This document shows positions 54,711-64,000 of a DNA stretch of 64,000 nt, piece by piece. Source of the DNA: Candidatus Eiseniibacteriota bacterium (GTDB taxonomy: Bacteria > Eisenbacteria > RBG-16-71-46 > CAVPCR01); contig CAWGMA010000001.1 of the NCBI GenBank assembly GCA_963823555.1, forward strand, positions 768,001 through 832,000, written 5' to 3'. Both the position numbers and the translations under genes were made by a program. Each line of letters opens with the position of its first letter. Within the stretch, counting starts at the first letter, position 1. The notes under the pieces are model-generated. The model made no database searches. It saw only the letters and a program-made list of their open reading frames with translations, and had not been told where the DNA came from.

Positions 54711-56645
54711 TTGGCAGAGGCGAGCGGCGCGCGAGTTCGACTGGGAGTCGAGGTCCCCGGCGGTGGCTACCACCGCAGCCTGATCTCCTGCCAGCAGGCC
54801 TGTCCGGTCCGCACGGACGCCCGCGGGTATGTGCGCGCCATTGCGGATGGTCGCTTCGAAGAGGCCTACCTCATCGCCCGCGGGCCGAACCCCTTCGCAT
54901 CCATCTGCGGGCGCATCTGCGGGGCGCCGTGCGAGGCTGCTTGCCGCCGCGGGCGCATCCCTCGCCTCGACCCCGACGGCGCCTATCTGGGTCCGGACCG
55001 CCCGGTCGCCATCCGCGCTCTCAAGCGCTTTGCCTGCGAGCAGGCGGGACCCGATGTTCGCCCGCCCGAGGATGTCGTAGACGATCTGCGCCGCTTCATT
55101 CCGGCGGTTGCCGCCGACGCCGAGGAGATGGCGCATCTCCTGCGCGGCGCGGTCCAGGGGCGCTTCGCGCCGGCCCAAGGCGAGTCCGTGGCGATCATCG
55201 GCTCGGGCCCGGCGGGGCTCGCTGCCGCGCACGACCTGGCCCTGCTCGGCTTGAGACCAATCGTCTACGAGATGGAGTCGGTCCCCGCCGGCATGCTCGC
55301 CCTGGGCGTCCCCGAATACCGCCTGCCGCGCGAACTCATCCGCCGGGAGATCGAGGTCATCCGCGCCCTCGGGGTCGAGGTGCGGTGTGGGGTCCTGGTG
55401 GGTCGAGACGTGACCTTTGCCGACCTCCGCGGCGGGCATGCCGCGGTCTTGATCGCGGTCGGCGCCAAGCGCCCGCGAGGCCTGAACCTGCCCGGCGAGT
55501 CCGGGCCGCGCGTGTTCGGCGGCGTCGATCTGTTGCGCGCAGTCGCTCTCGGCGAGTCCGTCGACCTGGGTCGTGAGGTCGTCGTCATCGGCGGCGGCAA
55601 CGTAGCCTACGATGTCGCGCGCACCGTCGTGCGCCAGGTCGCCTACGACGCCGCGCGCACCGCGGCGCGTCTTCCCGGCCGGCGTTCGGTCCGGCTCGTC
55701 TCGCTCGAGACGCTCGAGGAGATGCCGGCCGATACGCTGGAGATCGTCGAGGGCGACGAGGAGGGGATCGAACGGGTCGGCGGTTACGGGCCGGTCGAGA
55801 TCCAGCGCACCGGCGACGGCCGAGTATCCGGTGTCCTCTTCCGCCGTTGCGTCCGCGCCTACGACGATGAGCGCCGCTTCGCGCCGATCTACGACGACAG
55901 CGATCGCCGGACGCTGGGCTGCGACACCGTGCTCATCGCCGCCGGCCAGACCACCGATCTCTCCTTCCTCGCCGAGGGCGGTATGGACATCGAGAGCTTC
56001 CGCCCGGGCTGGCCCCGGGTCGATGCCGACACCCTGGCGACGACCGGCCGTGGCGTCTTCGTTGCGGGCGATCTGGCTCATGGCACACGTCTTCTCATCG
56101 ACGCCGTCGCCTCGGGGAAGAGGGCGGCGCGCTCGATCTACACGCACGTGACCGGCCGTCAGCTCCGGCCGGAGGCCCTCGAAGCGCACCTCGATCTCGG
56201 CGCCTACCGCCGGGAGCCCGGATATGAGCGCATTCGACGGATCGAGATTCCGGTCCTCGAACCCGAGGAACGCTTCGCCCGACCGGGAGCGGCGGTCGAG
56301 ATCGGCTACGACACCGCGCGCGCCACTCGCGAGGCCTCGCGTTGCCTCGATTGCGGTGTCACCCCGGTCTTCGATGGCACGCGCTGTGTCCTCTGCGGCG
56401 GCTGTGTCGATGTCTGTCCCACCACTTGCCTCAAGCTGGTCCCGCTCGCCGATCTCGAGCCGACGGAGGGGCTTCGAAGTCTCATCGACTGCCTTCTCGG
56501 TCCGGACGTCGATCCCGCCGCCCACTCCGCCATCCTCAAGGACGAAGATCGCTGCATCCGCTGCGCGCTTTGCGCCATGCGTTGCCCGGTGGCGGCGATC
56601 ACCATGGAGCGAGTTCAGTTCACGACCGCGTGGAGGTCCTCATGA
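54711..56645 (+). CDS. NAD(P)/FAD-dependent FeS oxidoreductase (GltD/NfnB-like) with C-terminal 2x[4Fe-4S] domain
   Basis: GGAGG RBS before TTG; CQQACP...CGRICGAPCEAAC, GSGPAGL, GVPEYRLP, GGGNVA, EASRCLDC, CVLCGGCVDVCP, CIRCALCAMRCP. Confidence 0.9.
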   Translation: MAEASGARVRLGVEVPGGGYHRSLISCQQACPVRTDARGYVRAIADGRFEEAYLIARGPNPFASICGRICGAPCEAACRRGRIPRLDPDGAYLGPDRPVAIRALKRFACEQAGPDVRPPEDVVDDLRRFIPAVAADAEEMAHLLRGAVQGRFAPAQGESVAIIGSGPAGLAAAHDLALLGLRPIVYEMESVPAGMLALGVPEYRLPRELIRREIEVIRALGVEVRCGVLVGRDVTFADLRGGHAAVLIAVGAKRPRGLNLPGESGPRVFGGVDLLRAVALGESVDLGREVVVIGGGNVAYDVARTVVRQVAYDAARTAARLPGRRSVRLVSLETLEEMPADTLEIVEGDEEGIERVGGYGPVEIQRTGDGRVSGVLFRRCVRAYDDERRFAPIYDDSDRRTLGCDTVLIAAGQTTDLSFLAEGGMDIESFRPGWPRVDADTLATTGRGVFVAGDLAHGTRLLIDAVASGKRAARSIYTHVTGRQLRPEALEAHLDLGAYRREPGYERIRRIEIPVLEPEERFARPGAAVEIGYDTARATREASRCLDCGVTPVFDGTRCVLCGGCVDVCPTTCLKLVPLADLEPTEGLRSLIDCLLGPDVDPAAHSAILKDEDRCIRCALCAMRCPVAAITMERVQFTTAWRSS

Positions 56646-57157
56646 GCACACCCTCGCCGGTTCTCGGCGCGCCCTCTCCGGTCGCGCCGGAGCGTTCCCG
56701 TCTCGCCCCAGAGCCCATGCCGCGCCGCGACTTTCTCGGCTTGGCCGCGACGCTCTCGGCCTTGCTCGCACTCGGCTTCGCCACGCTGGGGATGCTCCGG
56801 CTGCCGAAGGCTGCGGTCATCCCCGCGCCCTCGCGGCGCTTCCGGGTCAGCCTGCCGGAATCGCTGGTTCCGGGCGCGCCGTTCCTTCCCCCCGGCCGCT
56901 CGGTGGCCGTGTTCCGTGATGCCGGTGGCGTCTATGCCATCTCCCTCATATGCACTCACCTCGGGTGCATCGTCAAGCACGTGGCGAACGGGTTCGATTG
57001 CCCCTGTCACGGCTCGCGTTTCGCCGCCGACGGGGAGGTCACCAAGGGACCGGCTCCGAAAGCGCTGCCCTGGCTCCAGGTGAAGCGGACCGCAGCGGGC
57101 ACCTACATCGTGGACGAGGGGAAAGAAGTATCACCCGGGACCAAGGAGATGGCATGA
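56642..57157 (+). CDS. Rieske [2Fe-2S] protein of a Rieske/cytochrome b complex
   Basis: Tat motif RRDFL plus TM; CTHLGC and CPCHGSRF boxes; GPAPKAL. Confidence 0.93.
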   Translation: MSTPSPVLGAPSPVAPERSRLAPEPMPRRDFLGLAATLSALLALGFATLGMLRLPKAAVIPAPSRRFRVSLPESLVPGAPFLPPGRSVAVFRDAGGVYAISLICTHLGCIVKHVANGFDCPCHGSRFAADGEVTKGPAPKALPWLQVKRTAAGTYIVDEGKEVSPGTKEMA

Positions 57158-63300: not shown

Positions 63301-63960
63301 CCCTACGTCGCCGAGGGCTACGTGGATATCAATCCCGAGGACGCTCGCGAGCTCGGCATCGACGACGGCGATTACGTCTGGATCGACTCCGATCCGAGCG
63401 ATCGCCCGTTCCGCGGCTGGCAGAAGAAGAAGGAGGACTACAAGTTCGCACGCCTGATCTGCCGCGCGCGGTACTACCCGGGTACGCCCCGCGGGGTGAC
63501 TCGCATGTGGTTCAACATGTATGGCGCCACCCCGGGTTCGGTGGAGGGTGCGGCATCGCGCCCCGATGGTCTCGCCAAGAACCCGCGGACCGGCTACCAG
63601 GCCATGTTCCGCTCGGGATCGCATCAGTCCGCCACGCGCGGCTGGCTCAAGCCGACCTGGATGACCGACACGCTCGTGCGCAAGGACATCTTCGGCCACA
63701 AGCTCGGCAAGGGGTTCCTGCCCGACGTCCACTGTCCGACCGGCGCCCCGCGTGAGGCGATCGTCAAGATCACCAAGGCCGAGCCCGGCGGACTCGAAGG
63801 GAAGGGGTTGTGGCGGCCGGCGGCGCTCGGGCTCCGGCCGCGCTACGAGAACGACGCCATGCAGAAGTATCTCAAGGGTGAGTTCGTTCAAGACGGGAGC
63901 GCCACCGCCGCGAAGCCGACACCGGACGATGACCAGGGGAACAAGGGAGGGCAGGTCTGA
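60391..63960 (+). CDS. nxrA: Tat-exported molybdopterin oxidoreductase alpha subunit, periplasmic NXR/Nar type (NxrA-like)
   Basis: TRRDFL Tat signal; [24 protein letters not shown]...PRVCQKG (C-x3-D-x3-C FS0 type); [29 protein letters not shown]. Confidence 0.8.
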
Positions 63961-64000
63961 TGGCACGCGTCAAGAACTGGCAGATCGGCCGCGAGATGTC
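63960..64000 (+). CDS. nxrB: NXR/Nar beta subunit N terminus (partial)
   Basis: TGATG overlap; [13 protein letters not shown] resembles the NWQLGR start of periplasmic-type NxrB; only 13 codons visible. Confidence 0.7.
   Translation, partial: MARVKNWQIGREM

Follow-up and report, generated by a model that had tools for sequence, protein, structure and literature searches.

In which direction, and between which partners, would electrons run through an operon that joins a flavoprotein, a Rieske/cytochrome b pair and a multiheme cytochrome c to a molybdoenzyme resembling nitrite oxidoreductase (NXR) and nitrate reductase (NAR)? Such an operon starts near the end of a 64,000-nt stretch of DNA (hereafter the window; G000:C1:768001-832000) in the 4.62 Mb genome, 92.5% complete, of a Candidatus Eiseniibacteriota bacterium, whose lineage is placed among bacteria of the Fibrobacteres-Chlorobi-Bacteroidetes (FCB) type. 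Six open reading frames (ORFs) of the + strand at 54711-64000 encode, in this order, a flavoprotein, a Rieske protein, a cytochrome b, a cytochrome c, the alpha subunit of the molybdoenzyme and the start of its beta subunit, with junctions of -4, -4, +28, -4 and -1 nt from the first gene through beta. These ORFs and junctions agree with the layout given by the original prediction, which had described overlapping genes, two twin-arginine translocation (Tat) motifs and seven CxxCH heme motifs, and had proposed an electron-bifurcating respiratory module. The answer that we prefer, tentatively and at somewhat below an even chance, is that menaquinol would be split at the quinol oxidation (Qo) site, one electron going to nitrate and the other to NAD+.

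The first gene encodes a cytoplasmic flavoprotein with FAD and iron-sulfur (FeS) clusters (54711..56645; 644 aa, started by TTG, with GGAGG immediately 5' of it). It is followed by a Rieske [2Fe-2S] protein of the Ser/Phe type with the Tat motif RRDFL (56642..57157), by a fused cytochrome b of 511 aa made of b6-like and subunit IV-like parts and extra C-terminal helices (57154..58689), by a membrane-anchored heptaheme cytochrome c recognized by Pfam, with seven CxxCH (58718..60394), and by an NxrA/NarG-like alpha subunit of the type II DMSO reductases with the Tat motif TRRDFL (60391..63960). The beta gene (63960..64000 in the window; 375 aa, FeS cysteines invariant) runs on to G000:C1:833087. 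Beyond it lie, after a gap of +42 nt, an EbdC-like gamma subunit (G000:C1:833130-834029), which has a lipobox at Cys27 and Met136/Lys280 as heme b ligands, and, with a junction of -1 nt, a TorD/NarJ-like chaperone (G000:C1:834029-834703), assigned from a match to TIGR03482 (E 8.5e-6, below cut-off) and from its conserved position. Assignments by Pfam, NCBIfam and PDB agree with the named products. All six genes first recognized are thus present, in a unit of eight; the gamma subunit and the chaperone expected downstream were found there, and no NarK-type transporter gene, nor any other nitrate transporter or nitrite reductase gene, occurs within the eight-gene operon. The corA gene 3' of the operon was rejected as a member of the unit, with a match in only 1/80 related loci.

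Gene order is strongly conserved. Among the best 80 (71-88% identity) of at least 577 relatives found in a genome scan with alpha as query, all eight genes occur in order in 53/54 loci with both flanks. The four genes 5' of alpha are in order in 59/59 loci with enough flank and the three genes 3' of it in 66/67, figures which argue that the linkage is not due to chance. Only locus L055 gave no gamma and chaperone matches; its genome (G068) is also one of two carriers with a high-scoring RuBisCO. A metagenome scan started from the flavoprotein (best 80 of 568 matches) gave the same picture in loci long enough to tell: Rieske in 68/69, cytochrome b in 55/55, cytochrome c in 42/42, alpha in 38/38, beta in 32/32 and gamma in 29/29. 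Both sets consist of best matches and are biased toward close kin. The co-conservation of the flavoprotein and Rieske genes with alpha, on which the original prediction depended, is hence borne out from both sides.

The operon is spread over many phyla. The best 80 loci carry labels of Binatia, Acidobacteriota, Planctomycetota, Myxococcota, Methylomirabilis, Chloroflexota, Clostridia, Acidimicrobiia and others, with many loci each in Bryobacteraceae, Thermoanaerobaculia and Planctomycetota. The closest named locus (L063, labelled Ca. Eisenbacteria) has an alpha of 88% identity, as does a genome of the same genus, and within the host phylum the cytochrome b is found at 73% identity or more in only 6/206 genomes. 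This patchy spread and the mixing of phyla in the alpha tree are consistent with transfer between lineages; no match above 50% was found among the plasmids of PLSDB.

The molybdoenzyme has the make-up of a periplasmic NXR/NAR. Against the PDB, alpha had its best match, extending over the full length, in Kuenenia NxrA (7b04; 896 bits), compared with 175 bits for PcrA-type enzymes, 142 for EbdA and 130 for NarG; a member of the Nitrospira/anammox clade scores 1590 bits to the same structure. The residues C89/D93/C97/C137 (FS0 ligands), N92 and D296 (Mo ligand) align to 7b04, are invariant in 64/64 homologues and match the FS0 ligands, Asn and Mo-ligand Asp described for Kuenenia NXR (PMC8387239). 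The Met/Lys ligand pair of the gamma heme b is present in 64/64 homologues and the lipobox pattern in 42/64; the family scores of beta, gamma and the chaperone lie below the NCBIfam cut-offs, with their ligands invariant.

The position of alpha was examined in a 48-row quick tree anchored on named Nitrospira, Nitrospinota and Brocadiia proteins and by bit scores to 7b04, with Kuenenia, Nitrotoga and Hydrogenobacter sequences standing outside it. Alpha falls outside the Nitrospira/Nitrospinota/Brocadiia clade (SH-aLRT 100), with 38-41% identity to its members, and inside a sister clade (SH-aLRT 99) with proteins of SAR202, Gaiellaceae and Natronococcus. Membership in the Nitrospira/Nitrospina/anammox NxrA clade, taken as a place within that clade and an identity of at least ~60% with the NxrA of Kuenenia, thus does not extend to this protein (38-41%; 896 vs 1590 bits). 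The topology matches the published description of a sister clade that holds the NXR of Ca. Nitrotoga and the characterized periplasmic Nar of Hydrogenobacter (PMC6050957), the reference sequences of that clade being outside our tree; the Nitrotoga-type clade counts 581 sequences (PMC12823411). The original prediction of an NxrA-like alpha holds for the cofactor residues and for the periplasmic NXR/NAR superclade, with its place adjusted to the sister clade of the Nitrospira/anammox NxrA group. Rather than with non-nitrogen DMSO-reductase clades, alpha groups in the periplasmic NXR/NAR superclade of the type II DMSO reductases, all of whose features (Tat motif, FS0, Asn, Asp, beta, gamma and chaperone) were found, and it is separate in the tree from a chlorite-dismutase-linked enzyme.

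Compared with known enzymes, the operon shares with Kuenenia NXR-ABC (7b04; PMC8387239) and with Nitrospira and Nitrospina a Tat-type alpha with a 3Cys/1Asp FS0, Asn and Asp, an FeS beta and an EbdC-like Met/Lys gamma, but it differs from them by its identity of about 40%, its place in the sister clade, a predicted lipoprotein gamma, its own bc-type complex and the lack of autotrophy markers. With the sister-clade NxrA/NarG of Ca. Nitrotoga and Hydrogenobacter ('NxrA2' in the review file of PMC12823411), it has in common the sister topology, the alpha-beta-gamma-chaperone set, a four-Cys first cluster motif in beta and a gamma that does not have the fold of a transmembrane cytochrome b. QT closes the Mo motif here, and QM that of Nitrotoga, which is without a canonical complex III. 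The chemistry of alpha-beta-gamma is probably reversible, so that its direction must be read from context.

The membrane part has all the elements of a Rieske/cytochrome b complex, that is four heme histidines, a Qo motif, both Rieske cluster boxes and a c-type acceptor. The heme ligands H115/H129/H228/H243 of cytochrome b show b6-type spacing and are invariant in 59/59 homologues, and the Qo motif APWY, a described variant (PMC4122944), occurs in 64/64. The cysteine of heme ci (CxGG) is absent among the commonest residues at the position before helix A in 64 homologues, so a b6f-type Qi site seems doubtful; that cysteine is present in locus L213, from a genome (G444) with hydrazine dehydrogenase above cut-off. 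On the cytoplasmic side, H46, R248 and K249 are invariant in 64/64 homologues. They align with L213, but Haloferax and the host's second cytochrome b lack them. That second protein belongs to another Rieske/cytochrome b cluster (L106; G000:C4:98722-103357, - strand), consisting of an ExtKL-like pentaheme cytochrome, a Rieske protein and a cytochrome b fused to a 9-CxxCH domain (~990 aa). For the anammox complexes, a further heme b has been proposed at the dimer, bound by a His of cytochrome b with Arg/Lys close by (PMC12954380). The structure model of cytochrome b has a pLDDT of 66.7.

The Rieske protein, whose best PDB sequence match is anammox Kuste4569 (9rk4), has the cluster boxes CTHLGC and CPCHGS and is of the Ser/Phe type, with Phe in 61/63 homologues and Tyr in two. 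Ser/Phe Rieske proteins are predicted at 200-230 mV (PMC3509893), and Kustd1480, of the same type, was measured at +335 mV (PMC12954380); since this value departs from the prediction, we downgraded the Ser/Phe rule as a guide to a fixed potential of 200-230 mV. The heptaheme cytochrome has seven CxxCH in 67/67 sequences, and its residues M322, M428 and M526, invariant as Met in 66/66, are likely axial ligands of the last three hemes.

The flavoprotein has the domain order of DsrL-like proteins: an FeS domain at the N-terminus, Rossmann domains for FAD and NAD(P), a linker and a C-terminal 2x[4Fe-4S] domain. Its NAD(H)-type motif, S-L-E in place of the Y-R-R of NADP enzymes, fits the pattern given for DsrL-1 (PMC7596348), with which it shares both features, while no dsrA was found in the 92.5% complete host genome. 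L332-E333 and K105 occur in 57/57 homologues. The flavoprotein (model pLDDT 78.5) has its nearest structures in subunits of NfnABC and StnABC and, for the ferredoxin part, in FwdF (9bov/9bp5, 8oh5, 9n5u, 5t5i). NfnABC and FwdF are also the structural relatives given for the anammox reductases Kustd1483 and Kuste4570, which have a lysine at the FAD-proximal cluster (PMC12954380). These shared best structural relatives, the lysine K105 and the H46 and R248-K249 residues of cytochrome b argue for homology of the front end to the anammox complexes. The FAD modules of NfnA(BC) and StnC (9bov, 8oh5, 9n5u) have the same fold; the flavoprotein has Lys for the Glu ligand, and its modelled partner is cytochrome b.

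The proposed contact between the flavoprotein and cytochrome b was examined by complex prediction. Residues 14-392 of cytochrome b and 22-642 of the flavoprotein gave a score of 0.65, against 0.00 for the best of three controls; the mark applied is reached by 116/157 solved complexes and 2/215 mismatched pairs, and is rough here as our own alignments were used. Agreement between runs is 98% of contacts or more, and the partners have pLDDT of at least 79. In the modelled interface, the ferredoxin domain at the C-terminus sits on residues 30-51 and 266-308 of cytochrome b, i.e., the N-terminus and the linker between the b6 and subunit IV parts, with residues 283-288 against 606-610, two stretches conserved across the wider family. 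The flavoprotein is accordingly predicted to dock on cytochrome b at the inner membrane face.

Both halves of the operon have precedents, namely the anammox NAD(P)-reductase complexes, the haloarchaeal Rieske/cytochrome b-Nar clusters and the sister-clade NxrA/NarG. Flavoprotein, Rieske protein, b6-like cytochrome b and multiheme c are likewise clustered in Kuste4569-4574 and Kustd1480-1485 of Kuenenia stuttgartiensis (PMC12954380), assigned to cytochrome b subfamily G (PMC5600118), and module proteins have 37%, 43% and 41% identity to the copy in anammox genome G444. The lysine at the FAD-proximal cluster, residues matching the His/Arg-Lys of the proposed extra heme and a menaquinone host are common to both systems. 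The cytochrome b is however fused here and split there, the heme-cN/ci cysteine (present in L213) is missing, the cytochrome c has seven hemes instead of six or eight, and the electron sink is a Nar/Nxr-type molybdoenzyme instead of an HAO-like octaheme protein, in a host whose 92.5% complete genome gave no match to hydrazine dehydrogenase. To judge from these sequences, the front end would work like the anammox complexes and is a variant of them, with a fused 511-aa cytochrome b and no such cysteine. The Haloferax mediterranei cluster (L104; PMC3509893) similarly assembles Rieske, cytochrome b, NarG, NarH, an EbdC-like gamma and TorD, and so links the oxidation of quinol to a nitrate reductase that faces outward. 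Unlike our operon, it has no flavoprotein and no multiheme c, a different Qo motif and no H46/RK motif, and identities are only 24% for alpha and 30% for cytochrome b; by sequence comparison it is a parallel design, not an orthologue.

The front end is not tied to one terminal enzyme. Sixteen flavoproteins from the regions surveyed below, including the anammox copy, form one group in the flavoprotein tree (98/99), in which two long-branch host paralogues served as outgroups. We surveyed 18 hand-picked regions around more distant homologues of the module. The partner that follows it is an alpha of the same clade, with a split cytochrome b and nine hemes, in two regions, NarG (above cut-off) in one, another type II enzyme in one (L215), and a hexaheme protein with an HAO-like octaheme in one, from an anammox bacterium; a cbb3-like oxidase (2/18, below cut-off) and a molybdoenzyme similar to NapA and formate dehydrogenase (Fdh) (4/18, below both cut-offs, with a NapH-like neighbour checked in one) are taken up again below. 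No adjoining terminal enzyme was seen in four of the 18 regions, two ended with the region or contig and one was left unclassified. The partners that can be named are acceptor-side enzymes, the NapA/Fdh-like ones being undecided. The existence of such a front end was known, since cytochrome b genes beside such oxidoreductases were noted 'in many other cases' outside anammox bacteria (PMC5600118).

Several of these regions show variations of their own. In L202, L204, L212, L216 and L218 the cytochrome c is short, with four hemes in those counted, and the flavoprotein frame of four of them is extended N-terminally to ~870-1040 aa, with one CxxCH; one of the five precedes NarG, and four show no adjoining terminal enzyme. 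L205, L206, L207 and L214 have the front end followed by a molybdoenzyme of 910-1050 aa whose scores against NapA and formate dehydrogenase are equal and under either cut-off. A 9-10-heme cytochrome was seen in L206, L207 and L214 where the frame was read, and L207 has an embedded moaA. Genome G003, of the same order as the host, carries an alpha of the Nitrospira/anammox clade devoid of a bc module (L107) and, elsewhere, a bc module with an NapA/Fdh-like enzyme (L214).

Context was sought in the host and in a carrier sample of 51 genomes (the host and 50 of the 80 loci), whose members are kin and not independent. The host has MqnA/D-family genes, NuoF above cut-off, CcsB and an alternative complex III (ACIII)-like cluster with CoxB and a frameshifted COX1. 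No RuBisCO, ACS or ACL match was found in its genome, other routes of CO2 fixation being outside the search and the assembly frameshifted in parts; on these markers it is, as first supposed, unlike a known nitrifier. Likewise, no NosZ match was found in this partly frameshifted assembly. RuBisCO-family matches occur in 12/51 carriers, two at ~447 bits and ten at 74-233 bits, the latter probably RuBisCO-like proteins judging by score. An ACL domain is above cut-off in 3/51 (clearly in one) and an ACS domain in 1/51. A NuoF-family gene is present in 51/51 carriers, an NrfA-family gene in 27/51, MqnA/D in 39/51 and canonical NarG in 8/51, with none found in 43/51; five NosZ matches include one above cut-off. 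The menaquinone host, the rarity of CO2-fixation markers in carriers and the NarG, cbb3-like and HAO-like enzymes behind related modules favour nitrate reduction, NAD+-reducing or NADH-fed, which we consider quite probable. The original prediction had held that direction could not be read from sequence; this stands for the probably reversible enzyme, while comparative context does lean to one side.

Two side observations concern the host. The ACIII-like cluster (L105; G000:C1:542828-554217) continues with CoxB and with COX1 in at least three frames, probably owing to assembly indels. Candidates for the missing nitrite-reducing step are two multiheme genes of HAO-like type (G000:C1:1598109-1599663 and G000:C2:548554-549687), each of them interrupted by frameshifts.

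According to the reading that we prefer, the Rieske/cytochrome b complex would oxidize menaquinol at Qo. One electron would pass through the Rieske protein, the heptaheme cytochrome, the gamma heme b, the beta FeS clusters and Mo, reducing nitrate to nitrite outside the membrane on the exported molybdoenzyme. The other would pass through hemes bL and bH, possibly through an additional heme where the cytochrome b dimer meets (H46), and then through four FeS clusters and FAD to NAD+. Complex I would re-oxidize the resulting NADH, so that electrons at the menaquinol level yield more protons, or the NADH would be used in biosynthesis. Reduction of NAD(P)+ by bifurcation at Qo is also the proposal made for the anammox complexes (PMC12954380). 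Taking menaquinone at -70 mV and NAD at -320 mV (PMC12954380) and nitrate/nitrite at +420 mV (PMC8387239), the balance for one electron each way leaves 0.24 V, or 0.06-0.09 V after one charge crosses a membrane of 150-180 mV. Looping NADH through complex I would move six charges per net quinol and be feasible up to a proton-motive force of ~163 mV. Complex I translocates 4 H+ per 2 electrons. The original claim of electron bifurcation is thus kept in a quinone-based form at Qo. While the genes, their order, the cofactor motifs and their conservation were observed and the contact of flavoprotein and cytochrome b was modelled, we infer the substrate, the direction and the reduction of NAD+; this remains our best single reading even if held at a little short of an even chance.

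A number of points weigh against it. The symmetry rule quoted in PMC12954380 would set bH at around -345 mV if the Rieske is at +335 mV and at around -225 mV if it is at +215 mV; a Rieske of 200-230 mV would thus put bH at about -225 mV, too high for NAD+, and only the +335 mV value works, so that the case turns on the Rieske protein's potential and those of the hemes. The thermodynamic margin is small, the six-charge loop needs a proton-motive force of ~160 mV or less, and heterotrophs are not short of NADH. R248, at the position of the b6-type Qi arginine, is invariant and may allow a Qi site, and the His-Arg spacing is 202, compared with 204 in the Kuenenia proteins. The docking model is a truncated cytochrome b monomer devoid of hemes and is uninformative on electron direction. 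No MqnA/D match was found in 12/51 carriers, and the host gave no NrfA or NirK match and only weak propeller matches, none convincing, for NirS in its frameshifted assembly. Among related modules, the four 'NapA-like' partners, far under the NapA cut-off and with scores as good against formate dehydrogenase, are of undecided direction, and the two cbb3-like oxidases lie below cut-off too. Finally, reversibility is a feature of the enzymes in this clade, one of which is a proven nitrite oxidizer (PMC6050957).

The same anatomy and the same modelled docking would serve a flavoprotein that oxidizes NADH and passes electrons to cytochrome b, reducing quinone on the inner side, the whole forming a self-contained NADH:nitrate oxidoreductase with a Mitchell-type Q-cycle. 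This route, strongly downhill (~740 mV) and compatible with a Rieske of 200-230 mV and with the invariant R248, would suit heterotrophic hosts and the patchy, transfer-like distribution (6/206 genomes in the host phylum, mixed phyla in the tree). It would however move only ~2 charges per NADH, against ~6 via complex I and a Q-cycle. It also meets a NuoF-family gene in 51/51 carriers, a count that equally weakens the bypass of complex I, considered as the purpose of the flavoprotein, and the lack of the heme-ci cysteine. The same grounds were used against this direction for the anammox complexes (PMC12954380), and we regard it as rather unlikely. Nitrite oxidation, with electrons passing via the heptaheme cytochrome to the aerobic chain and a fraction running backwards through Rieske and cytochrome b, could draw on the complete set of NXR active-site and FS0 residues, on the high-potential Met/Lys heme b and on a host with ACIII and a heme-copper oxidase; the sister clade includes the Ca. 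Nitrotoga NXR (PMC6050957), Nitrotoga itself being outside our tree. Yet CO2-fixation markers occur in few carriers and none were found in the host, an electron passing from nitrite to Rieske would have to climb 85-205 mV, and a reversed Qo reaction would consume NADH and produce none. NrfA in 27/51 carriers points the other way too, and the enzyme could be the main nitrate reductase in the 43/51 where canonical NarG was not found. We hold nitrite oxidation to be distinctly improbable.

The same wiring might serve another oxyanion such as chlorate, perchlorate, selenate or similar, considering that type II DMSO reductases are often promiscuous, that one related module (L215) drives a different type II enzyme and that the operon has neither nitrate transporter nor nitrite reductase gene. 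The bit scores of alpha (896 to NxrA vs 175 and 142 to PcrA-type enzymes and EbdA), the invariance of N92, the Asn that coordinates the substrate in NXR, and the separation from the chlorite-dismutase-linked enzyme make this poorly probable. Least probable of all, with hardly any weight left to it, is flavin bifurcation, by which the FAD would act as in NfnB and couple NAD(P)H, ferredoxin and quinone. The flavoprotein is an NfnB homologue with an invariant arginine in the YRLP motif, but that arginine is present also in its nearest structures, NfnA(BC)/StnC, whose FAD module we take to be non-bifurcating. Of the hallmarks of an NfnAB-type enzyme, the Glu-ligated proximal cluster is replaced by Lys105 (for NfnB Glu117) in 57/57 homologues, the YRR motif by S-L-E, and the NfnA partner has no gene in the operon. 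Since there is neither a Glu117 equivalent nor a second flavoprotein of the NfnA/HydB type in the operon, Nfn-type bifurcation appears unlikely by sequence, and any bifurcation would be quinone-based at Qo.

Regulatory sequences were sought upstream. The palindrome ATGA-N6-TCAT, which we take to resemble FNR/CRP-family boxes, occurs in 23/124 upstream regions of homologous operons (among them L015, L037, L057, L060 and L150), against a mean of 0.5 and a maximum of 1 in 30 dinucleotide shuffles; one of the 23 matches overlaps the start region. The window has no exact copy upstream of the operon and only a degenerate form (54552..54565), a candidate regulator site with 8/10 matches to what we assume to be the FNR-type consensus, which alone is not significant. 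A strict FNR consensus (at least 8/10) was found in 14/125 regions, vs ~6 in shuffles and 6/62 downstream controls, and was discarded as unconvincing. A sigma70-like promoter match, TTGACA-17 nt-GAAAAT (54598..54626, + strand), is the sole one in 12.7 kb, where 1.1 are expected by chance, and its place ahead of the operon is suggestive only.

The window encodes at 52185-54425 (+) an M14 zinc carboxypeptidase that, by Pfam, carries an FlgD-Ig domain at its C-terminus, and at 49142-50449 (-) a repeat protein whose C-terminal tail resembles that of the carboxypeptidase; both are of secreted-protein style. A gene cluster at 43846-49086 (+) and 50618-52288 (-) presumably encodes, from the translations, an amine oxidase, a DUF1365 protein, two SAM-dependent cyclopropane-synthase-like enzymes, a DUF1295 protein and an FHA-GAF-PP2C-like protein. 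On the other side, 3' of corA (L001:13800-18300), many apparent frameshifts point to a poor local assembly, the operon frames being intact; we take the genes there to be aldo/keto-reductase-like, 4Fe-4S and DUF362-like.

The operon therefore fuses, as originally predicted, an anammox-like NAD(P) Rieske/cytochrome b design with a periplasmic Nxr/Nar, according to the homology of the module and the eight-gene linkage in 53/54 loci. Its front end is known outside anammox bacteria (PMC5600118), and the joined eight-gene unit was not found described in the literature searched, namely in the sections consulted of PMC4683180, PMC5317091, PMC8906906 and bioRxiv 2020.05.19.103440, 2022.03.11.484050, 2022.10.26.513921 and 197269; Fig. 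2/S1 of PMC5600118 and the trees of PMC6050957 and PMC12823411, which lay outside the search, may show its gene order. The wider claim, that the same four-gene front end has been swapped onto NarG, cbb3-like, NapA-like and HAO-like enzymes, that quinone-based bifurcation to NAD+ is a general mode of energy conservation and that a widespread non-anammox supercomplex splits menaquinol between nitrate and NAD+, is a speculative one that we think somewhat unlikely.

That a Rieske/cytochrome b complex reduces NAD(P)+ is a proposal dating from ~2013 for anammox bacteria, so far unproven. The present operon ties the module, in ordinary bacteria, to a single defined high-potential sink that is easy to assay, and makes this proposal directly testable. 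If the wider claim is true, the supercomplex, with NADH looped through complex I, would conserve for each quinol as much as about three times the charge that a normal Q-cycle does. Metagenomic 'nxrA' calls from the clade of this alpha should not be taken as nitrite oxidation. As the operon is common (at least 577 matches) and no canonical NarG was found in 43/51 of its carriers, it may represent an overlooked route of nitrate reduction.

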